From: a virus | Taxonomy: Duplodnaviria; Caudoviricetes | Strand: one strand, 5' to 3' | Virus record (IMG/VR): IMGVR_UViG_2706796498_000001 | Coordinates: 42,072-106,071 of that record | DNA length: 64,000 bases | Part shown: positions 3 to 63,432 of the stretch, piece by piece | Layout: every line of letters starts with the position of its first letter | Numbering within the stretch: position 1 is the stretch's first letter | Position numbers and translations under genes: made by a program | Notes under the pieces: generated by a model | The model's input: the letters and a program-made list of their open reading frames with translations, nothing else | Told to the model about the DNA's origin: nothing | Databases searched by the model: none

Positions 3-1040
3 TTAACAGTACAACCCGGTACCTTCCAGTTTGTCTGTGCTAAGTGTGGGCGTCCTTTAGATCGTTGGTATAGTGGTTATTGGGTAACTGAACGACCATT
101 AGCTGGACGGACACATGGGTATTCTATTTCTCAAATGGACGCCGTGTGGGTGAGTGCCGACCAACTCAAGCAAGATGAGTTACGGGCACCATCAAAACAG
201 TTTTTCTATAACTATTCTTTAGGTATGCCTTATGAAGATAAGTCCGTGGCCTTTCACGATTATGATGTATACTCTAATGAAATTGACTATGAAAAGCCTG
301 AACAGAGAACAGACGAATATCGTTTTGTAGCAACCGGGATTGATTGGGGAGAACATAATCATACTGTTGTGACTATTGGAATGACTACCACCGGTCAAAT
401 TAGGCTTATGGATATTACCTTTATTCCTCGGTCAACTGGTACTGAACATATTGAACAAGACCTAAACCAAGTGGTTAGAAAGATTAATCAGTACAACCCT
501 GATATTATTTGTCCAGACTTAGGTTTTTCTGGGTCATATGACCAAAAGCTGTTAGCTTACTATGGCCCTGAAAGGGTATATTCTGTTAAGGTTAGATCAG
601 CTAAAACCAATGGTGACTACAACTCACATTTCAGTGACGCTGATAATACAGTTACAATTGATAAGTACACACAAAATATGATGATGATTGCTAACATTAA
701 GCGTGGTGATATTAAGTTTTGGCGAGGTTCACGGGTGGATCCAATTATTCAAACTTTTATTAAGCACGTCCAAAATGTTGTCTTTAGAACCGATGAAAAG
801 GAAGATCCGGCTACTCATACAATTGTTTATGACAAGGTTATCTTACGTAAAGGTCCAGACCACTCGGAACAAACGCTCATTTATGCCTTTGTGGGCCTAG
901 ATAAGTTGATGAAAGAGTATGCGTTAGCACATCGGAACGCTATTGAAATGCAGTTTTTATCACCGGAATTATTTAATGGAGAACAGACCGACTTACAGCG
1001 TGAGTATGGGGTGACAGATGTAAAGGAATTTGGTGAGTGA
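3..1040 (+). CDS. terL: Terminase large subunit, C-terminal part (5' end outside window)
   Basis: Frame is open from base 3 (LTVQPGTFQFVCAKCGRPLDRWYSGYW...SISQM) into the listed ORF; nuclease motifs GIDWG and GPDH; immediately upstream of portal; Twort/SPO1-type. Confidence 0.9.
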   Translation, partial: LTVQPGTFQFVCAKCGRPLDRWYSGYWVTERPLAGRTHGYSISQMDAVWVSADQLKQDELRAPSKQFFYNYSLGMPYEDKSVAFHDYDVYSNEIDYEKPEQRTDEYRFVATGIDWGEHNHTVVTIGMTTTGQIRLMDITFIPRSTGTEHIEQDLNQVVRKINQYNPDIICPDLGFSGSYDQKLLAYYGPERVYSVKVRSAKTNGDYNSHFSDADNTVTIDKYTQNMMMIANIKRGDIKFWRGSRVDPIIQTFIKHVQNVVFRTDEKEDPATHTIVYDKVILRKGPDHSEQTLIYAFVGLDKLMKEYALAHRNAIEMQFLSPELFNGEQTDLQREYGVTDVKEFGE

Positions 1041-1045
1041 TAATC

Positions 1046-2587
1046 ATGGGATTATTTGATATGTTTAGAGAACAAAAGAATTACTTTAACCCGGAGGAAC
1101 TAACTAAGTCCTATCAGAATGACTTAGCTAAGAAGTTTACTCCGGGGAAAGCTGACCAACGACTAGATGATTTATCAATTACAATTGGTAATGATCGAGA
1201 AAACCAAAGGAGTGGTCAGCGTACACAGATTGACCAAGACTATTTCTTGCGTAAGAAGGCACAACTGGCCCAGTATGCAGAAGATATTCTGGTTCAATCA
1301 ATTATCCGTACTCGAACTAACCAAGTTGTTCGTTATGCTACTCCCGCACATTTAAGTCCGACTGGTGATGGGTTTAGAGTGATTAAGAAGGGTAAAACAT
1401 ATTCTTCTATGACAAAAGAAGAACAGAAACGTTCTAAGGAACTTGAACAGTTTATCTATTATACAGGTAAAGATCAATTTGATTGGCGTGACAATTTTAG
1501 TGAGTTTCTTGCTAAGGTTATCTATGACTACTACGTCTTTGATCAGGTTAATATTGAGCGTATCTTTGAATCTAAGTCCAGTAATCAACTGAACCACTTT
1601 AACCATGTTAGTGCTGGTAATATTCTAATTGAGCGGTTCCCTAAATCTGTTGACCGCCCAAAGACGTATGTCCAGTATGTTGACCATAAAAAGCAAAGCA
1701 CGTATACTAGCAAGGATTTAGTCTTTAAGACTTTCTGGTCTCAACCAAACGCTCGTTCTGGTGGTTATGGTAAAAGCCCGGTGGAAGCAACCATTCCCCA
1801 ATTGAATTACCGAACCAACGCTGAACAGTTTAATGCCCGTTTCTTCTCCCAAGGTGGTTTAACTCGGGGTATGCTGTTGATTGACCCCGGTGATGGAACA
1901 ACGGGAAGTCGGGCAAGTTTAGACGCCTTACGGCGTAATTTAACCCCGGCCCAGTCGGTTAATGGTAGTTGGAAGATCCCTATCATGTTTGGTCATGACG
2001 CCAAGTATGTTAATATGCAACAGAATTCTAAGGATATGGAGTTTACCCAATTCCTAGGGTATTTAACAAATGAGATCTGTGCTGTTTTTAATATCCAACC
2101 CGAAGAAATTAATGTTAATAACCGTGGTGGGGTAAATGGTAGTGGTAAAGGATCTTCTGTTTTAAATGAAGGTAAGACAGCTCAAGCTAAGTTAGCCGCT
2201 TCAAAGGAATCTGGTTTAATTCCCTTGATCAAGAATATCGAACGGTTAATGACTGACAGTATTCTTGCTTATGTTGATAATGAATATCAATTTATTTTCA
2301 CACCGAGTGACGAAGAAAAGGCTGAAAAAGAAGTGTCTTTAATTCAGGCTAAGGAAAATGTTGGCTTAACGATTAATGAAGGTCGGGCCATGATGGGATT
2401 GAAACCAGTAGAGAATGGTGATGTTCCAGGTAGTCCAGCTTATATTCAGTACCTTAATACCATTGCTAAGAATGATCCAGATTCCAATAAGGAATTACAG
2501 CAAAAGGATAAGAGTAACCCTGATAAGGGAGTATCTGGTGCTGAAATGGCCGAAGAAAAACAAAAGCAAGAAGCCAAAGAAAAATAA
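1046..2587 (+). CDS. Portal protein
   Basis: Twort-like portal motifs IIRTRTNQV, GYGKSPVE, FNARFFSQGGLTRG, NGSWKIP, KDMEF, TINEGR; ATG at 1046 with SD GGTGAG. Confidence 0.93.
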   Translation: MGLFDMFREQKNYFNPEELTKSYQNDLAKKFTPGKADQRLDDLSITIGNDRENQRSGQRTQIDQDYFLRKKAQLAQYAEDILVQSIIRTRTNQVVRYATPAHLSPTGDGFRVIKKGKTYSSMTKEEQKRSKELEQFIYYTGKDQFDWRDNFSEFLAKVIYDYYVFDQVNIERIFESKSSNQLNHFNHVSAGNILIERFPKSVDRPKTYVQYVDHKKQSTYTSKDLVFKTFWSQPNARSGGYGKSPVEATIPQLNYRTNAEQFNARFFSQGGLTRGMLLIDPGDGTTGSRASLDALRRNLTPAQSVNGSWKIPIMFGHDAKYVNMQQNSKDMEFTQFLGYLTNEICAVFNIQPEEINVNNRGGVNGSGKGSSVLNEGKTAQAKLAASKESGLIPLIKNIERLMTDSILAYVDNEYQFIFTPSDEEKAEKEVSLIQAKENVGLTINEGRAMMGLKPVENGDVPGSPAYIQYLNTIAKNDPDSNKELQQKDKSNPDKGVSGAEMAEEKQKQEAKEK

Positions 2588-2598
2588 TCGATAAAGTG

Positions 2599-2626
2599 TT
2601 GACAATTTGATAGAGTGTGTTAATAT
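2599..2626 (+). promoter_or_regulatory. sigmaA-type (early-class) promoter driving a non-coding unit
   Basis: AAAGTG-TTGACA-16 bp-(TGT)TAATAT, same architecture as the early promoters at 60-63 kb. Confidence 0.75.
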
Positions 2627-2630
2627 ATAG

Positions 2631-2731
2631 TCAAGGCTTTAGTCAAGCCTAGTGATAAAACTTCTTTCTTTTCTTTGATTTGTCTTTCTACAATGCAAAG
2701 AGGCCATGAATTAACGTTCATGGTCTTTTTG
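2631..2731 (+). ncRNA. Candidate small RNA (~100 nt) with CU-rich anti-Shine-Dalgarno core
   Basis: Lies between a promoter and an intrinsic terminator with no ORF; 5' hairpin AGGCTT-TAGTC-AAGCCT (2634-2650); pyrimidine tract 2661-2689 complementary to early-gene leaders. Confidence 0.6.
2697..2731 (+). terminator. Intrinsic terminator
   Basis: AAAGAGGCCATGAA-TTAACG-TTCATGGTCTTTTT stem-loop with T tract. Confidence 0.85.
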
Positions 2732-2772
2732 TTTTTGTTATAATTTCTTATATTAATTCTAGAACAAAGTTT

Positions 2773-2782
2773 TGTTATATTA
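2773..2782 (+). promoter_or_regulatory. Putative late promoter (TGTTATATTA) for the capsid gene
   Basis: TATATTA core recurs upstream of structural genes (4395, 9133 on minus strand, 10924, 14548, 19129, 52784, 57487); matches the late-promoter motif known for Twort-like phages. Confidence 0.65.
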
Positions 2783-2837
2783 TACCTAGAATTAATAAAT
2801 AGATATTCATCTAGATGAAAGGAAGTTATTAGAACAT

Positions 2838-4328
2838 ATGCCTAAGCTAGAAACAAAAAGTCACGCGGATACTGTATTTAAGTCCACGAATCGTTCCGAA
2901 GAAATCGCTAAGAACGATGGTATGGTTTCAGAAATTAGTAAGGCTTTGGAGGCCGGTTATGGTATTACCCCTGACACGCAAGTTGATGGAGCGGCTTACC
3001 GTCTGGAAAGTCTTGACCCAACTCTGAACATTACTACGTTTGGTGAAAATGACTTTACCATTTACAAGGACTTGGAACGGGTTCCTGTTAATCAAACCGT
3101 TCAAAAGTACACTGTTTACTACAACCACGGTCGGACGGGACACCAACTGTTCCAACCGGAAATTGCTAAGTTAAGTGTTAACACGCCTAACGCACGTCAA
3201 AAGACCGTTAACGTTAAGTTCGTAGTTGACACCAAGGGTGCTTCCTTTGCTATGCAATGGGCTAACACGACTGTTGACACCCAAACCCTGCTGGAAATTA
3301 GTGGGGTAAACACGATTGCTAAGGCAATTGAATACGCTACCTTCTATGGAGATTCTGACCTTGCTACCCAAGATGGCGAAGGTTACGAATTTGACGGTAT
3401 CTCCAAGCTGATGGATCAAGATAACGTTGTTGACCTTCATGGTGGTGCTTTAACTCCAGGTAAGCTGAATGAAGCCGCTACGATTATTGGTAAGCGTGGT
3501 TACGGGAAGGCAACTGACGCTTATATGCCAGTTGGTGTTAAGGCTGACTTCATTAACCAACACCTTGGTTCCCAACGGATTCTTCAACCGAACCCGGCTG
3601 ACCACGGAATGCAAGTAGGGTTTGATATTACCCGGTTCATCTCCGCTAATGGGGACATTAACCTGCATGGTTCTACTATCATGGATCTTGACTTGGTACT
3701 TGATACTGAATCCACTCCAGATGTTAATGCTGGGGCCGCTCCTACGGTTCAAGCTAAGCAAGTCGCTGGTCAAGGTGGTGCCTTCTTAACTGATGATAAG
3801 AAGGACGCAAACGGTCGGACAATCCTTAGCAAGGAAGTAGGGACTGAACTTCAATATCGGGTAGTTGCTGTTGGTGCCCACGACAGCCTTCCATCTGACA
3901 TTGCTACGGCTACTCCGACTGCCGCAACTGATGGGGTAACTCTTACAATTACTCTTTCCCCATTGGTAACTGACCTTCCGCACTATGTAGCCATCTATCG
4001 TAAGTCTGATGTGCCGGGTGATGAAGATTTCCGTCTGATTGACCGGGTACCGATGTCCAAGTTCCAAAACGGGACTTTGACTTACACCGATGTCAATGAC
4101 ACTATTCCGGGTACGGCTGACGTATTCATTCTTGATCGGCGTCCAGAAAACATTCGTTACCTTGAGTTTGCACCAATTATGAAGTTCCCATTGGCTGTAA
4201 CGACCACTGCTACGAACTTCGCACTCCTCTGGTACGGGGCACTACAGCTAATTTACCCGAAGCGTTGTGTAAAGCTTCACAATGTATTATATGCTAGTGA
4301 CGCTGAATCCTTGTTTGACTTAGCATAG
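2838..4328 (+). CDS. Major capsid protein precursor
   Basis: AGYGITPDTQVDGAAYRLESLD, AKAIEYATFYGDSDL, EFDGISKL, ALLWYGAL: Twort/SPO1-type capsid. Confidence 0.95.
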   Translation: MPKLETKSHADTVFKSTNRSEEIAKNDGMVSEISKALEAGYGITPDTQVDGAAYRLESLDPTLNITTFGENDFTIYKDLERVPVNQTVQKYTVYYNHGRTGHQLFQPEIAKLSVNTPNARQKTVNVKFVVDTKGASFAMQWANTTVDTQTLLEISGVNTIAKAIEYATFYGDSDLATQDGEGYEFDGISKLMDQDNVVDLHGGALTPGKLNEAATIIGKRGYGKATDAYMPVGVKADFINQHLGSQRILQPNPADHGMQVGFDITRFISANGDINLHGSTIMDLDLVLDTESTPDVNAGAAPTVQAKQVAGQGGAFLTDDKKDANGRTILSKEVGTELQYRVVAVGAHDSLPSDIATATPTAATDGVTLTITLSPLVTDLPHYVAIYRKSDVPGDEDFRLIDRVPMSKFQNGTLTYTDVNDTIPGTADVFILDRRPENIRYLEFAPIMKFPLAVTTTATNFALLWYGALQLIYPKRCVKLHNVLYASDAESLFDLA

Positions 4329-4344
4329 ATATAATTATTAAATT

Positions 4345-4370
4345 CCTAGGTATTTTTACCTAGGTTTTTT
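4345..4370 (+). terminator. Intrinsic terminator after capsid
   Basis: CCTAGGTA-TTTT-TACCTAGG followed by T6. Confidence 0.8.
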
Positions 4371-4432
4371 ATTGCCCAATAATTTAAGTGTGTTTATATT
4401 ATTAGTAGTATATAGTATGTATTGGTGGTGAT

Positions 4433-5296
4433 TTGGTGGCAAAATTTGATGTGTTTCTCCCGTTTGATAAAGTTGCCAAGTCTGATGATGATAAAGTCAT
4501 TACGATTAGTGGCTACTCATCGACAGGGGACAGAGATTATCAGGGAGAAACAATTGACCCTAATGGTATTCACTATGAATATTTGTTAGATCATGGTTAT
4601 ATTGACTATGAACATGATACTGATCAAATTATTGGGGTACCAACGGAAAATACGCATTTAGATAACAAGGGTTTATTTCTAGAGGCTAAGCTATTTTCTA
4701 ATATGGAACAGGTACAGAATATTATGAAGCTGTACAAGAACATTGAGGAAAATGATATTGATCGGAATTTAGGTTTTTCTATTGAAGGTAGTGTCATTGA
4801 ACGGGACGATGAAGATGATTCAATTATTCGTCAAGTTCAGATTACTGGGGTAGCAGTAACTACACACCCAGCTAACCCCGCTTGTAGTTGGAAGGTACTA
4901 AATAAGTCCTTGTTTAACTCTAATAACAAGAGTAGTGACCAAGTAATCAAAGACATGGAAACTATGACTGCTGGGTATGATGTAAATAGTGCAACAGTTC
5001 ATGGTGGGGCCGCCTTTCGTAAGGAATCTTTTTTAGGCACCTTTAACAATTTAGTATTTAATCTAAAGCAGGCCAAGAAACTTGGGCTAGAAACGGTGGC
5101 AACTAGTTTAGCCGAAGAGTTAGATAAGAATGACGCTGACGAGGACGCAAGGGTTATCTTTGTGCAGTTGTTTACTGGTTTATCCGAAGCAGACGCCCGG
5201 TTAATTGTGCAAACAGTTGATCAACAAGCAGATACCGATAACCGGTTGAGGCTACTTGAAGGTTCATCTAACGCAGATGATGATGATGATGATTAA
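4433..5296 (+). CDS. Prohead protease
   Basis: ISGYSST, DYQGE, GYIDYEH, LGFSIEG, VAVTTHPANP motifs of the HK97-like/Twort head protease. Confidence 0.9.
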   Translation: MVAKFDVFLPFDKVAKSDDDKVITISGYSSTGDRDYQGETIDPNGIHYEYLLDHGYIDYEHDTDQIIGVPTENTHLDNKGLFLEAKLFSNMEQVQNIMKLYKNIEENDIDRNLGFSIEGSVIERDDEDDSIIRQVQITGVAVTTHPANPACSWKVLNKSLFNSNNKSSDQVIKDMETMTAGYDVNSATVHGGAAFRKESFLGTFNNLVFNLKQAKKLGLETVATSLAEELDKNDADEDARVIFVQLFTGLSEADARLIVQTVDQQADTDNRLRLLEGSSNADDDDDD

Positions 5297-5313
5297 AGGA
5301 GATTTATAAAGAT

Positions 5314-6243
5314 ATGGAATTAAAAGACGTTTTTGAACACATTGATGAAATTAAAAAGTCCCTCGAAGAAAACGAAGCCAAGTCCCTTGCACATAAGGAA
5401 CTCAAGAAGGACGAAGCAGATGACGATGAAGTAGAGGAATCTGTTCAAGTTCATGATGGCCAAATTCCTGATGGTGATGGTGACGCAGACGACAAGCCAG
5501 AAAAGGAAAAGATGGCTAAGAAGTCCAAGAAGTCTGATGATTCGGGTGATGAAGATGGTGCAGATGATGAGGACGCCGCAGACGATGAGGACGCTACCAA
5601 GAGTAAAGATTGCGATGAAGTAGAAGAATCTTGTCACAAGACTAAGAAGTCCGAAGATGTAGACCCAGATGTTGAAAAGTCAATAGATGAACCAAAGGAC
5701 GATGAAATGGTTAAGTCTTTGATTGGTGCTACTAACGAATTAATTGGTTTGGTTAAGTCCGTAGTTGTTCAGAACCAATCTTTGCTTGGTATGGTTGAAA
5801 AGTCCGTTAAGGAACCAGATTCAGAAAAGGCAGTTGAGAAGTCAGTAGATGAACCAGAGGACAGCGTGCAAAAGTCCGAAGCAGAGGTAGCTAAGTCTAA
5901 TGATGGAGAAAGTAAGAAGGCCGAAGTAGCTAAGTCGATTGACAAGGTAGCTAAGTCTATTTATGAAGAATCTGAAAAGGACGAAGTAGCTAAGAGCTTC
6001 CCAGAAGGCAAGTCAGTTGACCCTGCTTCTGATGAAGTTGCTAAGTCCGTAGATGAAGATGTAGTTAAGGCGGGTGAATTAAAGGAAGTTATCACCAAGT
6101 CTATTAATAACTACTATGGTAAGGCTAACTTCCATGACCAAAAGATTCTCAAGAGCTTGCAAAGTCTTTATCATGATGTTGAAGGCTTTGATGATGATGA
6201 AGTGGCTCCAGATGATCTTATTAACCGTTATAACGAGATCTAG
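5314..6243 (+). CDS. Acidic scaffold-like head morphogenesis protein
   Basis: D/E/K-rich with many KS repeats; follows the protease as in Twort-like phages. Confidence 0.7.
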   Translation: MELKDVFEHIDEIKKSLEENEAKSLAHKELKKDEADDDEVEESVQVHDGQIPDGDGDADDKPEKEKMAKKSKKSDDSGDEDGADDEDAADDEDATKSKDCDEVEESCHKTKKSEDVDPDVEKSIDEPKDDEMVKSLIGATNELIGLVKSVVVQNQSLLGMVEKSVKEPDSEKAVEKSVDEPEDSVQKSEAEVAKSNDGESKKAEVAKSIDKVAKSIYEESEKDEVAKSFPEGKSVDPASDEVAKSVDEDVVKAGELKEVITKSINNYYGKANFHDQKILKSLQSLYHDVEGFDDDEVAPDDLINRYNEI

Positions 6244-24531: not shown

Positions 24532-25071
24532 ATGGCAATTACAACTCAAGTTGGACATATTCAACAAGCAATCAATTTTATTAATAATCATAACCATCTC
24601 TATTTTGAGTTTGCTAAGGAAGCTGACTGGTCAGATTCTAATAACCCAGAAGCAGAGAATGAAACAACGACTTCTTTAACAGACCCTAAGGCATTTTTGA
24701 AGGTTGACCATCTTTATTTATGCTATGACACAAACACAACTACCACATCATCTACTGATACAGATACAACTATTACTTATAAGTCAAAAGCATGGTCAAT
24801 TGTAGACCCTACTACAGTGTTACCAAGTACAGGTATTCCAACCCAAGACGCTCGTTATGTTTGTTTAGTAGGAACTTTAGCGGTATCAGAACTAGATACG
24901 TTTAAGTACACACAAATTGGGGTTGTTGACTTCCAAGCTGATTTAGATAGTCACGCCCTTTTAGCCAACGCTGTATCAAGTCCGGGTTCCCTACTTTTTT
25001 ATGAAAATAGAATGCTAGAAACTTATACTAATACAAACTCAAAGGTAGTTAAGTATATGCTCAAGTTTTAG
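24532..25071 (+). CDS. Baseplate protein
   Basis: MAITT..GHI..A..F, W....NP, LLFYENR motifs of the Twort-like ~173-aa baseplate protein. Confidence 0.7.
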   Translation: MAITTQVGHIQQAINFINNHNHLYFEFAKEADWSDSNNPEAENETTTSLTDPKAFLKVDHLYLCYDTNTTTTSSTDTDTTITYKSKAWSIVDPTTVLPSTGIPTQDARYVCLVGTLAVSELDTFKYTQIGVVDFQADLDSHALLANAVSSPGSLLFYENRMLETYTNTNSKVVKYMLKF

Positions 25072-25085
25072 GAAGGGTGGTGTAT

Positions 25086-27677
25086 ATGAGTAATAGTATC
25101 TTTAATCTTGACCCCACGACACACCAAGCTAGTTTATCTAAGGTAAATATTGGTGCTAGTGATGATGCTAGTTTAATTGTCTTGGGTAAAGTTACTAAGG
25201 TTTACTACCACCAAGGAACCCTAGACTTTAAGTTGACTAGTGGGGTATCTAGTATTGTTGCCGATGGTAGTGGTAATGGGACTGGTAGCGCTCGGATTCC
25301 ACTTGATTACTTTGGCCAAGATAGTGAAGGTCGTACTTATGGACACTATCGCCCTGTTCAGATTGGTGATACCGTGGCTATTGCCTACCTTAATGGTCAT
25401 AAGACGTCACCAATTGTTATTGGGGTATATGCACCGAATGGGGAACAGTATGAAGCTATCTCACCAACTCTATTTGATAGTGGTGATGATAAAGACAATT
25501 ACATTGCTGAAACAGGTCTAGCAGAACAACACGTTCACCATTCTGGTCAAATTAGTTATCGATCTGGTTCCGGTCGGCTATTTGAAAGTTTGAATGGTTA
25601 TTCCTTTATGGTCATTGATGATGATACTTCCCAAGACTATTCAGAACTATATACTGACTTGTCCTTGGTTCCTTATTCATCAATTGATGGAAAGACCCAT
25701 GACCCACAGAGGGAAAAAGCTGGGGACTGGTTACTTGTCCATGAAGATAACCCAAACGGATTAGACGTAGATAATCACATTACCCGGTTTTATGTTAATA
25801 AGGCCGGGGATTTTGAGTTAGTCTTTACTAACACTTCTTTTGCTGGAGTTTCTACCGTCTTACATATGGATAAGAACGGTATGCAACTTAACAAGTATAT
25901 TGGCCATCAAAGGAAAAAGGCAGGTCTACCTCGGGCTAGTGAAGAAGATCAAACCTATACTGCTGATTTTGATAGTGCCCCAACGACTGTTACTTTTGAC
26001 CTAGGGAAAACCAAAGACGATACTATCTCTTTAAAGAGTTCCACAACAGCGGATTCCAAGGAGCAAGCCACTAATCTTGAGGTTCGGCCGGACGGGGTTT
26101 ATATCAATGATGCTAAATTATTTGATTCTAACTCAAATAGCCTATCCGCTCTTGATATGTTCCTTGACGGTGGGGTCATGGACTTTAGCAAGATTACTGT
26201 TAAGAACTTTTCTGGGGATAACATTGAAGATGGCACCATTGATGGCACCAAGTTAAAGGGTAAGACCGTTACTGCTGATAAGCTAAACATTAGTAAGCTG
26301 TCTGATATTAGTTCCAATATGGGAACAATTACAGCAGGTTATATCCAGGTTAATAACGGAACAGCAGGTTCAACTGGGGTTAAAATTAGTGGGGACGCTA
26401 GTTCAGACCCCGACATTTTAACAGCACACGATAAAGCCCAATTACAACAGCAACTCAATGCTTTATATTCACAGTGCCAAGCGTTAATTGACTATGGTAC
26501 TACAGTTGGAATTGACGTTAGCGAACTCAAAACGAATGAAAACTCCCTAAAAAACTTAACCGATTGGATCTTTGAAACCGATGGTAATGTTAAAGTTGAT
26601 CGAGTAAAGATTGATGACGCCATTACTAGCTTCACGGGTTTGTTAGAAACCTATCGGAGCAAGTTTACTTCCCAGTTAAACCAGAAGATTGGTGAAACTT
26701 CTAATAAGGCTAACTCTATCTACCAAGGGTCACAAGAACCAGATCAAGCTAACGTTAAAGAGGGCGACCTTTGGCTTCAAACTAACTCTGATGGTACTAG
26801 CAATATTATGCAGTATGACAACGGTGTTTGGCAGGAGGCTAACCTCAAGGGCTACCAAGACGCAAAGACGGCCGCTGAACAAGCCCAAGAAACCGCAGAT
26901 AAGTTACCTCATAATTATTATCAAGCAACCGAGCCAAGTGGTACCCAATACAATGATGGTGACTTATGGTATCAAAGTGTTTCTTCTACTAGTGATGGTA
27001 AGATTAAGTACAATATCTATAAGTGGGATATTTCTAGTAAGAGATGGGTGCAGTTAATTGATAACAACGCCAATGCTAACTACGTGGCTAGTTCCGCCCC
27101 TGCTGACCCTAGTGAGGGTGACTTTTGGACAGATATCGATGGTACACTTCATCAATATAAATCAGGTACGTGGGTAACTGTCCCTACTCAAGGCCCTCAA
27201 GGTGTCCCAGGTACTCCGGGTGATGACGGTAAAACTTATTACACGTGGATTATGTATGCTACCGATAATATTGGAAGTAATATGAGTAGATCACCAAAGG
27301 GAATGACCTATATCGGATTAGCCTATAATAAGGAAAGTCCTGAGGAATCCTCTATACCGACTGATTACACATGGTCAAAGATCAAGGGTGATCCCGGAGT
27401 TAGCCCAATTAATCTGGTTATTGAATCATCGAATGGTTATCAATTTAAAAATGGTATAATTAATACAACTTTAACTGCAAGGCTTTATCAAAATAATGAA
27501 GAAATTGATAAAGATGGAACAGGCTATGCTTATGTGTGGTCTAAAACTAATGCAGATGGAACAGAGGATACTGCTTGGAATCTGGCTCATCAAACAAGTC
27601 AAAAAACAATTACTATTATGTATGAAGATGTTAAACAAAGGGCCACTTTTGATTGCATAGCAGAATCACTTAATTAA
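25086..27677 (+). CDS. Baseplate spike/hub-like protein fused to fibre-type domains
   Basis: N-terminal OB-like LGKVTKVYY...IGDTVAIAYLNG...PIVIGVY; C-terminal P..GDLW repeats, collagen-like GPQGVPG, and TWIMYA...YTWSKIKG motif. Confidence 0.7.
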   Translation: MSNSIFNLDPTTHQASLSKVNIGASDDASLIVLGKVTKVYYHQGTLDFKLTSGVSSIVADGSGNGTGSARIPLDYFGQDSEGRTYGHYRPVQIGDTVAIAYLNGHKTSPIVIGVYAPNGEQYEAISPTLFDSGDDKDNYIAETGLAEQHVHHSGQISYRSGSGRLFESLNGYSFMVIDDDTSQDYSELYTDLSLVPYSSIDGKTHDPQREKAGDWLLVHEDNPNGLDVDNHITRFYVNKAGDFELVFTNTSFAGVSTVLHMDKNGMQLNKYIGHQRKKAGLPRASEEDQTYTADFDSAPTTVTFDLGKTKDDTISLKSSTTADSKEQATNLEVRPDGVYINDAKLFDSNSNSLSALDMFLDGGVMDFSKITVKNFSGDNIEDGTIDGTKLKGKTVTADKLNISKLSDISSNMGTITAGYIQVNNGTAGSTGVKISGDASSDPDILTAHDKAQLQQQLNALYSQCQALIDYGTTVGIDVSELKTNENSLKNLTDWIFETDGNVKVDRVKIDDAITSFTGLLETYRSKFTSQLNQKIGETSNKANSIYQGSQEPDQANVKEGDLWLQTNSDGTSNIMQYDNGVWQEANLKGYQDAKTAAEQAQETADKLPHNYYQATEPSGTQYNDGDLWYQSVSSTSDGKIKYNIYKWDISSKRWVQLIDNNANANYVASSAPADPSEGDFWTDIDGTLHQYKSGTWVTVPTQGPQGVPGTPGDDGKTYYTWIMYATDNIGSNMSRSPKGMTYIGLAYNKESPEESSIPTDYTWSKIKGDPGVSPINLVIESSNGYQFKNGIINTTLTARLYQNNEEIDKDGTGYAYVWSKTNADGTEDTAWNLAHQTSQKTITIMYEDVKQRATFDCIAESLN

Positions 27678-28987: not shown

Positions 28988-31900
28988 TATCACCCTAAGT
29001 AATGTTAATGATGGTAGCACCCCTTATGTCCACATTGCCTATGCTAATAGTGCAGATGGCACAGATGGGTTCTATGTTAGTGGTAGAAATAATTTACTAT
29101 TAGGCACAGGAAATAGTCTAAGTATAACGGGTACAAATATAGTTAACCAATGTGTTAATCAGTATCCGCTAGATAACGGATACAATGTTTCGTCTTTGGC
29201 TTCGGCGCTTGGGACACAGTTTACGATTAGTTTTGACTGGTCAGTTTCAGGCAGTTCACCTTCAGGTGGCTTCTATGCTCAATGGAGTGATCTTCCATGG
29301 CAAATAAATCCAGTATTAACTAAAGTTTCGAGTTCAAATACCTCGGGTCATATTTCCAATACATTTAGCATAAGCACTAGTAGTGTAAATACAGCAAATA
29401 AGATTGGTTTTAGACTAGATAACTTTGTGGGAACTCTTACAATTTCTAATGTTAAGTTAGAAGTAGGTAGTGTAGCTACCCCCTGGTGTCCAGCACCATC
29501 AGAAATGAACCCTACTTACATGGGGGCCTACACTGATTACACACAATCAGCTAGTTTAGACCCGACAGCTTATCATTGGTCATTAATCAAAGGTGCTGAC
29601 GGCAAGGACGGTGCTCAAGGTATCCCCGGCGCCCCCGGTAAAGATGGTCAAACTACTTATTTCCATATTGCTTATGCTAATTCCGCTGATGGTAGTGTAG
29701 GATTTACCAATACACCCGGTAATAATTCTTATGATTATTTTGGTACTTATACTGATTACACTCAAACAAGTTCAACAGACCCTACCAAGTACACGTGGGT
29801 AAAGATGTTCGATTCATCTAAGAAGCGTAACTTCACTACCACACCAACCACGCCTTATGATGTGGGTGATACTTGGATAACATCTGGGTCAACTTATTTC
29901 TGTAAAACCGCTAGATCAAGTGGTGCATTCAATCAAAGTGATTGGACACTACAACAATTGACCATTCAATCATTAGATAGTGATTTACAGGCTAATATCA
30001 ATGGCGATAAAAACCTGTTAATGGTTGATGATGTTACCTACTACTCAAATCCTGTTCTAGATTTGTTTAATATGTCTACTGGGAGTAACAGTGCTAATAT
30101 TGGGGCTAACTTATTAAAAGGTACGTCCACTACGAATAATCAAGGGCCATATGATTTTAGCAATGTTTCCGTGACAGCAGGTGAAAACTATACATTTTCT
30201 GGCTGGTGGTCAACAACTGGGAGTGGGATTGTTTCACCATATATCCAATACTATGATAGTAAGGGAAACAAACTTAAAGAATTTTATGCTAATCAAAACT
30301 CGCCACTAACGGGAACTTCTTTTACTTTAACTGGAACTGCACCAACAAATGCTGTAACGGCACGTGTATTGTTGGCCCAATCCAATAGTTCAATCAGTAT
30401 TACCTATAACTCATTAAAGTTTGAGCATGGTTCACAAGCAACCCCTTGGTCGCCTTCTCCAGAAGAAGTTTGTTATCCATTTGACTACACTTCAACAGAT
30501 ACCACTTATACCTTCCAAGTTCAGGCTAAAAGTACCGTTAATGGCGATTATGTTCATATGTACCCTGCTTGGGGTTATACCTATGGACAATCACAAAATA
30601 AAACCACCCAAGTATCAGTTACCACTTCACCTAGTGTTCCAAACCAAACTAGCACCTTTACCAGTGCAGACAGCGATACTAAGTTGGCACTAACTACTGA
30701 TTGGGTAACCTATATGTGTACTATTTCTGGTACGTGGGATAAAGGGTCTGTTTTAACTGCTTTATTGGGTCAAGTGTACAATAGTGAAACCAAGGGTACC
30801 GTTTCCTTTAGAAATATCAAGTTAGTTGCTGGGAATGCAATTAAAGATTACACTAGTGATGATAGTATTACAGTAGCCCAAGGTAGTAACTACTGGGATT
30901 TAACTACTTTGCAAAAAGGTAGTTCTGTCAACAGAGGTGGACTAAACCTAGCTAAAGGTACAAGTTCAAAAGACCAATCATCTGGTAATGCTAGTCAAAC
31001 AACAGGCTGGAATATAGTTACAATCGCTACTCTTGCTAACCCACAAGTAGGTCAACAGTACACAGTAAGTGTTAATACTAGAAATAGTGGTGGAATTTAT
31101 AAAATACAGATATGGGACGGTACCAGCCCTACTAACTGGGTCAGTTTTATAACCAGTGGTAATCCTATCTCAACGCAAGGGCAGAATAATTCGTTTACCT
31201 TTACTTGGCCAAGTGGTAAAAATCAATATCTAATCGTACAACTGGCTAATAGTAATGATGGTGGTCAGATATTCTGGAACAGTACAATGCTTGAAGAAGG
31301 TACCATTGCACACCCTTGGTCGCCTAATCCTTCTGATAGTATCTATGCTAGTTGGTTACAAAACAAATACTATACACCTTGGTACCCAATTAGTGAGGGC
31401 CAACGAGTATTCTTAACTCACTATGATTACCCCGCTTATCCGGGAGTAACCACTAGTGCTAGTGTTGAGTTTGCAGATAGTGATCATAATTTTATTTCTA
31501 ATGGTACTAATAACAGCCAAGGCAGTTCTACTTTAGATGGTACTAATAGTACGTTTATCAACCCACAAAGTTTGAATGGGGTTTACTACAATGAACGAAT
31601 GCTAAATATTAGTATTGTTTCTCAAGCCGCGACAACTAATTATCAAGACCTTTATATCCAAACGTCTGGTTTATTACAGTCTAAGTTGGCAGTTTCTGGG
31701 CGAGGTACTACTGTGGCTACTTTTGATCCATATTCTGGTCAAAGGGTAGATACTCAATATTGGGACACCTATGGTTCGGTTGATAATGCTAATGCACTAG
31801 TAAATTACTTAAAATCAATTTCTAGTCAAGATCTAGTAGTGGCGATTGCAACTAAAGACGCCTTTATCAACAACTCTAACGATTTCCAATTGGCGGCACA

Positions 31901-37820: not shown

Positions 37821-40814
37821 TTGAAAATTAAGGAAATTGAAGCGAAAAACTTTCGTTCTTACAGTAATTTAAAAGTCAGCTTAGAAAACTACCATGGTTT
37901 AACCCTACTATCCGCAGATAACGGGAGCGGCAAGGCACAACCATATTCAGAAAGAGTTATGACGCCTAGTGGTGTTACTACTATGGGCCAACTCAAGGTT
38001 GGCGATTATGTATATAACCGTTTTGGTAAGCCAGAACAGGTAACAAATATTTTTGAAAAAGGTAAACTAGATGTATATAGAGTTATTACAAGCGACGGTC
38101 GTAAAGTTCTTGTAAACAAAGACCATTTATTTACTGTATATGATTCCAATGGGAAATTAAATAAAACTCTATCCATAGAGGATATGCTTAAACAGGGGCT
38201 ATGGAAAGACAATCCTAGTAAGCATGGTTCTAAAGTATATAGGTATGCTATACCTATCAACGAAGCTATTGAATATCCCACTGCTAAAATTAATTATGAC
38301 CCATATACTATTGGGGCATTATTAGGAGACGGCTGTTTAGTTGATAAACATATTCAAATTTCCGCAGATGATAAGAAAAAGTTTATCCTAGATAAGATTG
38401 TAGCTAATAACCATTGTTTATCTGGGTACAAGAGAAATTCAGAAAAAAACTATACTTGGGCTTTTAAACTGAGTAAACAACAAGGCAGTTATAAGGGTAC
38501 TAGACACACGCACTACCTAGCCCAAAATGAAGATTTAAACCTACCAGAAGAAGTTGTTCAATATACCAAAGATAAATCCATACCTAGTGAGTTAATGTAT
38601 GGTAGTATTAAGCAAAGGTATGAGCTAATCAATGGTTTATTTGACACTGATGGTTCTGTTACCTTAGTAAAAAGTCGGAGTAATATTAGTTCAATTACTT
38701 TCTCTAGTGTGAATAAGACCTTAGTAGACCAAGTAACTGAAATTTTGAGGTCATTGGGTTACTTAGTGTTTGTAAGCAAGGAAGATCGGCGTGGTAAAAA
38801 ACACGCTAACAGTAACTACGCTTATAAATCTATTGAATATACCATAAAGGCAAAAAGTACGTGGGAAAAAGAATGTAAGTTATTTACTATCCCAGATAAG
38901 TTAGATAAAGTAAAATCCTCTAAAAAGACCCGTTATAAACATACTGATCGGGTAAAGATAGTGGAGGTTGATAAATTAGATTATCAGGAAAATATGCGTT
39001 GTATTATGGTAGATGATAAAGAACACCTTTATGTTTCTGGTGACTATGTAGTTAGTCATAATTCCTCTATTTATTTTGCCTTACTTTATGCTTTATATGG
39101 TAAGTGCCCTGATGGTACCAAAGCCGATGAGGTTATCAAACATGGTTCTAAGGGTGGTACCTTTACTCGGGTTAGTCTGGAAATTAATGGCAAAGACTAT
39201 GAAGTTACTCGTTACCGTAAGGACAAGGAATATAAGAATAAGGTAATTCTAACCTGTAATGGAGAAGATGTTACCTTGTCTACGGATAAGGAAACCAATG
39301 ATAAGATCATTGATATTTTAGGTTTTAAAGAAGATACCTTACTTAATTCTCTGGTGTTCAGCCCAGAACAACTAAACACCTTTATTAATGCAACTGATAA
39401 GACTAAGAAAGCAATGTTGGAAGATCTAACTAATATTGCAGTCTATCGGAAAGCATATGCCCTAGTTAAGGAAGATCTCAAGGAAGCTCAAGAGGGCCTC
39501 TCTAAGGCCCAAGAAGGCCAACAACATATAATTGACCTAGGTAACTATCAAAAGGCCCTAGAGGAGCAATGGAAGCAAAATAAGGCTACTCTAGAGGGTC
39601 AAAAGAAGAAGTATCTCGATTATTTATCTCAAACTGATCAAGCTACCTTGGAAAAGGAAGTGGCTAGTCAAACTTATTTAGTTGATCATAACAAACAGGC
39701 GTTACTAACTCTTAATAATCAAATTGATAAGTTAGGAATTAACACAACTGCGCCCCACCTAAATGAATACAATCAGGCTCGTTCCCTGGCTGATCGAAAG
39801 TATAATGTTCAAAAGCATACCTACAATCAATTACAAGAAATCTTTGCCCAGTTAAAGAAAGTTCAGAATACTCCCAATGCTATTTGTAGTTTATGCGGGA
39901 ATGTTCTAGACGCCCAACATAAACAAGTTGAGATTACTAATCTCACTAAACAGTTACAAGAAGGGAAACAACAATACCTATCTCAAAAGGAAGAATATAA
40001 TCAAGCCGAAGATAAAGCCCAACAAGTAAAAGCGATTGTTAATCAGGAGCAGGCTAGTGCTAAGGAAAGCCTGAATAAATTAAATCAACTTAACAGTCAA
40101 AAAGAAAAGATTAATGCACAGATGAGGCAAGTAACGTTAGCCCTACAACAAGCACAGCAACGGCTTAGCCAGTATCAAGAAAAACAAGGTGAATTTATTA
40201 GGTTAAATCAACAAGTAATTGAGAAGCCTAAAGAGTTATCCACTGACTATCACAGCCAAATGATTGAGGCACAAGATAAAGTTAATCAAGCTAAGAACAA
40301 GATTGAAAAACTGAATAAGCTAGAAGCTATTTATTCAGACCGTGGGGTTAAGGCTCAAGCATTAAACCAAGTCGTTCCCTTCTTGAATGACCATCTTGCT
40401 AAAGCGTTGGATATTCTTACAGGAGGTGAAATCCAAGCAAGTATATCCTCGCAGACGACCACCAAAACCGGCAAGGTTAATAATAAGATTGATCTATCGG
40501 TTAACACACCTAAAGCTAAAAAGACGTACCAAGAGCTTAGTTCGGGGGAAAAGCGGCGTGTAGGAATTTCACTGAACATTGCCTTCATGGAATACCTGCA
40601 AACCCAAATTGGCGGGGTTAATCTCGTTGTTTTGGACGAATTGTTTGATAACCTCGACCCTTCTGCGATCGAAGCTGTGGTAAATCTGCTGAGTAAGATC
40701 AGTAAAGACGATATGACGGTATTAGTCATTAGCCACAATCCCGACTTGAAATATAATGATAGTTTTGATAATATTATTAATATCAATGACAACAACGGGA
40801 AGTTAGAACTGTAA
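37821..40814 (+). CDS. sbcC: SbcC/Rad50-like recombination ATPase subunit, intein-containing
   Basis: NFRSY; Walker A NGSGK|SS split by the intein; coiled coil with CSLC zinc hook; LSSGEKRR; VLDELFD; VISH. Confidence 0.9.
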   Translation: MKIKEIEAKNFRSYSNLKVSLENYHGLTLLSADNGSGKAQPYSERVMTPSGVTTMGQLKVGDYVYNRFGKPEQVTNIFEKGKLDVYRVITSDGRKVLVNKDHLFTVYDSNGKLNKTLSIEDMLKQGLWKDNPSKHGSKVYRYAIPINEAIEYPTAKINYDPYTIGALLGDGCLVDKHIQISADDKKKFILDKIVANNHCLSGYKRNSEKNYTWAFKLSKQQGSYKGTRHTHYLAQNEDLNLPEEVVQYTKDKSIPSELMYGSIKQRYELINGLFDTDGSVTLVKSRSNISSITFSSVNKTLVDQVTEILRSLGYLVFVSKEDRRGKKHANSNYAYKSIEYTIKAKSTWEKECKLFTIPDKLDKVKSSKKTRYKHTDRVKIVEVDKLDYQENMRCIMVDDKEHLYVSGDYVVSHNSSIYFALLYALYGKCPDGTKADEVIKHGSKGGTFTRVSLEINGKDYEVTRYRKDKEYKNKVILTCNGEDVTLSTDKETNDKIIDILGFKEDTLLNSLVFSPEQLNTFINATDKTKKAMLEDLTNIAVYRKAYALVKEDLKEAQEGLSKAQEGQQHIIDLGNYQKALEEQWKQNKATLEGQKKKYLDYLSQTDQATLEKEVASQTYLVDHNKQALLTLNNQIDKLGINTTAPHLNEYNQARSLADRKYNVQKHTYNQLQEIFAQLKKVQNTPNAICSLCGNVLDAQHKQVEITNLTKQLQEGKQQYLSQKEEYNQAEDKAQQVKAIVNQEQASAKESLNKLNQLNSQKEKINAQMRQVTLALQQAQQRLSQYQEKQGEFIRLNQQVIEKPKELSTDYHSQMIEAQDKVNQAKNKIEKLNKLEAIYSDRGVKAQALNQVVPFLNDHLAKALDILTGGEIQASISSQTTTKTGKVNNKIDLSVNTPKAKKTYQELSSGEKRRVGISLNIAFMEYLQTQIGGVNLVVLDELFDNLDPSAIEAVVNLLSKISKDDMTVLVISHNPDLKYNDSFDNIININDNNGKLEL
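37935..39062 (+). mobile_element. Intein (376 aa, Ala1) with LAGLIDADG homing endonuclease
   Basis: Begins AQPYSERVMTPSG and ends VVSHN before Ser+1; block B NKDHLF; block F MRCIMV; LAGLIDADG motifs IGALLGDG and INGLFDTDG. Confidence 0.92.
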
Positions 40815-45203: not shown

Positions 45204-45233
45204 TTGACAACCCCCACTTGTTGGGGGTATTAT
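45204..45233 (+). promoter_or_regulatory. sigmaA-type promoter with palindromic spacer
   Basis: TTGACA-18-TATTAT; the spacer forms ACCCCCA-CTTGT-TGGGGGT. Confidence 0.65.
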
Positions 45234-45263
45234 TATGTCATCGAAAGGAAAGGAGATCTAGTC

Positions 45264-48402: not shown

Positions 48403-48461
48403 CCTCCTGGTACGCTAGTGGCGGGATATTAAATGCTATGATTAAAGAAAAGGAGATTCTT

Positions 48462-51999: not shown

Positions 52000-52034
52000 A
52001 TAGTTGTCGAAAGGATAAAAGAAAGGAGTTTCTT

Positions 52035-60149: not shown

Positions 60150-60177
60150 TTGACTTTAATTATAGACGTGTTATTAT
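60150..60177 (+). promoter_or_regulatory. Early promoter of an empty cassette
   Basis: TTGACT-16-(TGT)TATTAT; followed by leader and SD but no start codon. Confidence 0.75.
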
Positions 60178-60246
60178 ATAGTTGTAATAAGGAACAAGGA
60201 AAGAAGAAGGAGCTAATTTTTTTAAAAACAAAATTCAAAAAAAGTG

Positions 60247-60275: not shown

Positions 60276-60314
60276 AAGAATGTAGCAAGGATAAGAAAAG
60301 AAAGGTAGTTAAAA

Positions 60315-61349: not shown

Positions 61350-61388
61350 ATAGTTGTAGCAAGGAATTAAAGAAAAGAGGAAATTAAA

Positions 61389-62391: not shown

Positions 62392-62419
62392 TTGACTTTT
62401 AACACAACTATGGTACTAT
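62392..62419 (+). promoter_or_regulatory. Early promoter
   Basis: TTGACT-TTTAACACAACTATGG-TACTAT. Confidence 0.75.
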
Positions 62420-62533
62420 AAGAGTGTAGAAAAGATAAACAAGAAAAGGGGAAACAAGAAAATCTTAGATGGTGTAGTTTCAAAAAAGGAAAGTCGCCCC
62501 GTTTTAAAGGGTGTTCACTACCAGAATGGAAAC

Positions 62534-63280: not shown

Positions 63281-63309
63281 TTGACATTGCTTTCCTATAG
63301 GTGTATTAT
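63281..63309 (+). promoter_or_regulatory. Early promoter of an empty cassette
   Basis: TTGACA-17-TATTAT; leader with SD GAGGGG but no start codon. Confidence 0.75.
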
Positions 63310-63373
63310 AAAGACAATCAAGAAACAAGGAAAAGAGGGGAAGCAAACAAGATAAAAATAATTAATAAAACTA

Positions 63374-63402: not shown

Positions 63403-63432
63403 AAAGACAATCAAAGGAAAGGAATATTAAAC

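Follow-up and report, generated by a model that had tools for sequence, protein, structure and literature searches.

The DNA between the portal and major capsid genes of a lytic herellevirus of the Hopescreekvirus type probably contains, as judged from sequence, a functional small-RNA gene, and we consider it moderately probable that the product is a trans-acting phage RNA which damps translation across the whole class of the phage's own early genes. A single RNA would thereby probably turn down a set of about a dozen early genes together. The window analyzed here (64,000 nucleotides) comes from a phage genome (G000) of 106,071 bp with 817-bp terminal repeats, in which it occupies bases 42072-106071. 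Its capsid region shows 95% DNA identity to that of Lactobacillus phage LPhi1ADMT15, which infects Limosilactobacillus fermentum and belongs to Hopescreekvirus (Herelleviridae). Positions refer to the window unless preceded by the name of a genome or locus.

The unit lies on the plus strand between the portal gene (1037-2587) and the major capsid gene (2838-4328), both on the plus strand and assigned with PHROGs. It begins with a sigma70-type promoter (2599-2626) composed of TTGACA (2599-2604), a 16-nt spacer and TG-N-TAATAT (2621-2626), which belongs to a repeated class driving early and middle genes, including the predicted targets, and agrees with the published herellevirus early consensus (PMC10383478). 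The +1 position was set at 2633, 7 nt after the -10 box, and this placement is supported by a gene without Shine-Dalgarno (SD) sequence in the relative L019, whose ATG is found at exactly this distance. The promoter and the terminator together predict an RNA of ~105 nt (2633-2736), which comprises a 5' hairpin (2634-2650, by fold prediction), an antisense core (2652-2693, supported by pairing and alignment tests) and an intrinsic terminator (2696-2736; a stem of 16-17 bp and a U tract) that also ends the terminase-portal unit. This promoter-hairpin-core-terminator arrangement, already described in the original prediction as a unit free of ORFs, is real: no ORF of at least 50 aa was found in it, and with its own promoter and intrinsic terminator it has the general layout of anti-RBS small RNAs. 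The fold of the unit had a z-score of -5.5, contributed mostly by the terminator, and an Rfam search at gathering score gave no match in the window. The core had been described as unpaired, which applies to a U/C loop at 2662-2676 (unpaired probability ~0.8-1.0 by fold prediction) that faces the SD region and is the likely seed; the remainder is partly paired, and a weak 6-bp stem closes the loop. The order of head genes in the window (1037-6243) is unusual, being portal, capsid and protease, and that in relatives is portal, protease, hypothetical gene and capsid.

The evidence for targets comes from the early leaders as a class. Read in reverse complement, the core resembles a consensus early leader of this phage that runs from +1 over the SD and on to the start codon, a likeness noticed at the outset for the part from +1 to the SD: in an alignment scan, the inverted core ranked second among 2198 purine-rich windows with one true leader ahead of it (score 33.3; real leaders, 14.9-33.9). 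When 127 gene starts of the phage were ranked as partners of the core, early-promoter genes accounted for 10 of the best 11, and mean pairing was -21.3 kcal/mol for early starts (n=17) versus -13.2 kcal/mol for the others (n=110), class statistics that overstate independence because the leaders are related copies. None of the 110 non-early gene starts, used as reverse complements, paired with the early class as well as the core did, and the pairing of the core fell inside the range of true early leaders tried as probes. The comparison with dinucleotide-shuffled controls that had been proposed for the phage leaders pointed in the same direction (0/150 shuffles reached the core), and block shuffles gave an identical result (0/150). 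Half-fixed shuffles indicated that the SD-facing half and the +1-facing half each contribute (0/150 each). Shuffles also failed to match the core when leaders were trimmed at +1 (0/60) or when unfolding costs were added (0/15), both in this genome and in each of two relatives with a mostly different set of genes in the early region. In the harshest control, 2-3 of ~300 non-early pyrimidine-rich windows (~1%) equaled the core; at this level, the unit carries an accessible and conserved seed complementary to target ribosome-binding sites beyond chance. An early preference was not seen for three other units of the genome that likewise combine a promoter and a terminator with an anti-SD motif.

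Most predicted duplexes start at +1 and span the SD, some of them extending to the start codon, and the core fits both leader types (GUAG/GUCG starts and AAUCAA starts). All three duplexes that had been worked out by hand were recovered exactly: 2665-2680 with 63409-63424 (16 bp, two G-U), 2658-2672 with 52017-52031 (15 bp, one G-U) and 2663-2675 with 60293-60305 (12 Watson-Crick pairs and one G-U). The first involves a predicted target leader (63409-63432) in the 817-bp terminal repeat, present in two genome copies and paired over 16 bp from +1. The second involves the predicted target leader of a beta-solenoid/hexapeptide paralog (52006-52034; -20.7, z -1.8), and the third a predicted target leader at 60282-60314 (-25.2 kcal/mol, z -4.6). 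Other predicted target regions, likewise on the plus strand, are the leader at 61356-61388 (-23.5 kcal/mol, z -3.9), the leader of another paralog (48417-48461; -23.0, z -3.2), for which no intact TTGAC promoter was called, and a region at an early-promoter gene (45219-45263; -25.8, z -2.6). An extension of the first duplex to 22 bp had also been suggested. The required sequence is there, but the AAAGAC hexamer concerned (63403-63408) is located downstream of the -10 box and just ahead of the predicted +1 (63409), so that the longer duplex would require transcripts reading through from the 63281 promoter; in the relative L019, the ATG of a leaderless gene directly follows such a hexamer. The original prediction also warned that leaders of low complexity would produce some matches by chance, and this was justified for individual matches: 0.71 would be expected by chance, and of the three found one was the unit itself. 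Thus, any single leader match is not beyond chance, whereas the class-wide fit is.

Promoter-leader cassettes without a start codon directly behind the SD-like tract were observed at 60150-60246, 62392-62480 and 63281-63373, and two of these three run straight into the next promoter. It is possible that such start-less early cassettes serve as extra binding sites or decoys for the predicted RNA.

Within the genus, the unit is conserved, being present in eight related loci with capsid identity of 95-99% where measured. A 38-nt stretch of the core (2655-2692) is invariant across these eight loci, and the -35 and -10 boxes are conserved in nine aligned loci. Variation is found in the terminator stem and loop, the promoter spacer and the DNA downstream. 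The 5' hairpin is invariant as well, with a 12-nt tandem duplication at its start in one relative. Changes in the terminator stem are of the A-U/G-U type only, accompanied by loop differences and without two-sided compensatory change. Given that 25% of third codon positions in the capsid gene are variable, 38 invariant columns are unlikely by chance (~2e-5 if independent). Invariance extends to the promoter, hairpin and capsid leader, so this conservation indicates constraint and not specifically pairing. The core is the same in all carriers and so offers no variation that could follow that of the leaders; the leaders differ among carriers, yet their predicted pairing with the invariant core persists. 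In two loci (L020 7558-9747 and L021 5753-7942), a Pnkp-like gene (AAA_33, metallophosphatase and RNA ligase) lies between portal and unit, and both loci retain the unit whole, promoter included. Another insertion, after the capsid gene in L019 and L022 (11571-13007), consists of a leaderless zinc-finger/Mom-domain gene and a NUMOD1 endonuclease-like gene.

Beyond these close relatives, no counterpart of the unit was found in Bacchae, LpeD, 3-521, LP65 and two metagenomic relatives. A covariance model of the unit found no homolog at E <1 in ~1 Mb of sequence including six other herelleviruses, promoter-terminator and inverted-leader scans of other Lactobacillaceae-type herelleviruses revealed no counterpart, and exact-pattern scans of IMG/VR returned zero matches. 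The unit was also absent from the short contigs of two sister lineages (portal identity 84% and 65%, capsid identity 81% and 73%, respectively), in which the gene order is different.

This distribution bears on a rather unlikely explanation, namely that the unit is a relic, an inverted early leader cassette that recombined in before the portal terminator, has no pairing function and matters only for its terminator. Every carrier is indeed a close relative (95-99% capsid identity), early genes differ between relatives, and cassettes have clearly been shuffled in this phage, which has promoter-leader copies without adjacent start codon at 60150, 62392 and 63281. A functionless inverted copy would look equally leader-like, and symmetric alignment revealed no clear G-U wobble bias (A>G 16% versus G>A 22%; C>T 35% versus T>C 7%). 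However, the conserved sense-strand promoter and 5' hairpin would be left unexplained, as a functionless copy is not expected to retain them. Moreover, the core is free of substitutions and indels despite its U-runs, against 25% variable third codon positions, and it scores near the center of the leader class in the alignment scan.

It is improbable that the RNA is directed outward, as a broad SD blocker of host mRNAs or of the early mRNAs of co-infecting related phages. Host gene starts (1704 in a 1.89-Mb Limosilactobacillus genome of 52% GC, which we take to be L. fermentum from its 16S signature) were compared with 20 shuffles. Their average of -14.4 lay slightly beyond all 20 shuffles (-12.7 to -14.0), and the top partner was a DnaE-like gene (-31.2). 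But only 4.5% of the host starts reached the mean of the early class (shuffles, 1-4.5%), and the best host value was inside the range of the shuffles' best values (-26 to -36). Silencing of host mRNAs, one of the roles originally envisaged, was therefore not borne out, the host leaders showing little beyond generic SD complementarity. With regard to competing phages, the core fits the early leaders of the more distant phages G001 (1/150 shuffles) and G002 (0/150), but such an RNA would strike the phage's own leaders as well. The original interpretation is partly supported as a whole, and what stands of it is the multi-target anti-RBS RNA against the phage's own early and middle genes, which is well supported computationally through its class-specific pairing. 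The host DnaE-like gene (G035 945941, plus strand) has a phage-like, AG-rich leader.

A quite improbable alternative, also raised in the original prediction, is that the U-rich tract acts in cis, pairing with the capsid SD in read-through RNA and keeping the capsid gene off until its late promoter bypasses the lock. This late promoter, TGTTATATTA (2773-2782, plus strand), was correctly placed and is identical to the late motif published for herelleviruses (PMC10383478); a related motif precedes the capsid gene in more distant phages too. It sits between the core and the capsid SD, the capsid leader is invariant, and the predicted fold of a 2633-2870 transcript pairs the capsid SD region (2817-2828, plus strand) with the core at a probability of ~0.6. 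Against this partial agreement, the duplex itself is weak (-16.7 kcal/mol) and no better than shuffles (z -1.0), the +1-facing half of the core is left unexplained, and read-through of a strong 16-17 bp terminator would be required. The unit promoter would itself produce the RNA needing the lock, and a similar capsid SD is found in more distant phages lacking the unit. Finally, because the inverted core can be translated as R-K-T-N-Q...K-K-E-V, antisense action on zinc-finger (DUF4379/CapR) homing-endonuclease genes, at the 5' end of their coding sequence, was considered, and this is very improbable: one such gene is present in the phage genome, and G001 and G002 contain a look-alike unit complementary to the starts of these genes (1/150 and 0/150 shuffles, respectively), but homology of the look-alike to the window unit is not significant, a nucleotide profile of 53 repeats misses the core, and 36 of 150 shuffles paired with the phage's gene as well as the window core did, by which this target was largely refuted.

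On the favored reading, that of a trans-acting RNA against early leaders, host RNA polymerase would transcribe the unit from the promoter class common to its targets and simultaneously with them, and the terminal hairpins would allow a stable RNA to accumulate. The open U/C loop may nucleate on the AG-rich SD, with pairing spreading to +1, and the resulting duplex over the SD would block ribosome loading and hence initiation. An RNA made alongside its targets but longer-lived could provide delayed negative feedback or a timer on the early genes. Late terminase-portal transcripts, stopping at the unit terminator, might contribute additional copies. As leader cassettes have been shuffled in this phage, the unit probably originated by inversion of one of these repeated cassettes.

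Among known systems, the closest in action is the c4 antisense RNA of phages P1 and P7 (77 nt), also a small trans-acting phage RNA whose loop-displayed complementarity around the ribosome-binding site of the phage's own mRNA blocks translation (review PMC12197685). If it functions as predicted, the unit would work like c4 RNA, yet it is not a c4 member. There was no Rfam match to this family in the window, and c4 acts on a single antirepressor mRNA in the immunity of temperate phages, whereas the present unit lies between portal and capsid genes in a lytic herellevirus and its predicted partners are a dozen or more early leaders. The RNAs sar of P22 and OOP of lambda are cis-encoded in temperate phages and act on one regulator each. 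Both are short antisense RNAs lowering the translation or stability of phage mRNAs (PMC12197685); in contrast, the unit is remote from its many predicted targets and would pair with them imperfectly. A functional analogy can be drawn with RegB of phage T4, which is expressed from an early promoter and inactivates early mRNAs class-wide via their SD at the end of the early phase (PMC3014915). RegB is a protein endoribonuclease that cuts GGAG with the help of S1, whereas the unit is non-coding and its RNA would base-pair. Phage K of Staphylococcus, which belongs to the same virus family as the present phage, expresses intergenic small RNAs (snc001-007) with predicted translational targets (PMC9241854); no report describes any of them as complementary to a leader common to early genes, and none is located between portal and capsid genes. 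No ROOL/GOLLD-type large phage RNA was matched by Rfam in the window. In the mostly open-access literature searched, we found no account of an RNA by which a lytic phage targets a leader common to its early genes.

Several other RNA-like units were noticed. A similar layout (promoter, hairpin, U-rich core and terminator) occurs at G001:92643-92770 on the plus strand (L028:12643-12770), and units of this type are also present in G002 (~25190-25430, minus strand) and L111; the genomes carrying them are relatives of 134-153 kb. The core of these units is complementary to the beginning of the coding sequence in zinc-finger homing-endonuclease genes, of which the neighboring one gives the best genome-wide match in G001, and the leader of a LysM-domain-like gene contains 16-17 nt that complement this core perfectly. 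These look-alikes pair with endonuclease starts and not with early leaders, the opposite of the window core, and are candidate anti-endonuclease or anti-LysM-gene RNAs; the longer version in G002 resembles a decayed inverted endonuclease start. Further ORF-less promoter-terminator units were seen at G001 45366, 49609 and 70425 (plus strand), with counterparts in G002. Outside the window, a ~75-nt promoter-terminator unit with an anti-SD motif follows the endolysin gene (G000 38759-38865, plus strand); it is conserved in L013 and L020 and shows no early preference. Two tandem ORF-less promoter-terminator units (G000 21803 and 21668, minus strand) have near-identical terminators and anti-SD-like motifs. 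A ROOL RNA was identified at G000 24752-25297 (minus strand; Rfam RF03087, 129 bits, E 1e-26). Two tRNA genes are preceded by an RNA-like region that is rich in GC and carries a promoter of its own (G000 ~30700-30894, minus strand); one short motif in this region also occurs in the core, and Rfam gave no match to it. The zinc-finger repeat (DUF4379/CapR) endonuclease-like gene at G000 2780-3952 (minus strand; L032) encodes a product ending in 26 residues that recur without change in several small, unrelated viral records.

Herelleviruses include phages used in therapy and biocontrol, and the shutoff of their early genes is only partly explained, being attributed to proteins acting on transcription (PMC9241854, PMC10383478). 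More broadly, it is conceivable, at slightly less than an even chance in our estimation, that a lytic phage shuts off or times its whole early regulon by one inverted-leader RNA, which would then be the RNA equivalent of T4 RegB and a device invented independently several times in unrelated phages. Because phages of this group are grown on a food-grade host, they offer an accessible place for testing such a device. If the prediction is true, a leader-recognizing RNA would add a post-transcriptional switch to early shutoff in herelleviruses, and it would explain why early leaders stay alike despite the turnover of the genes behind them.
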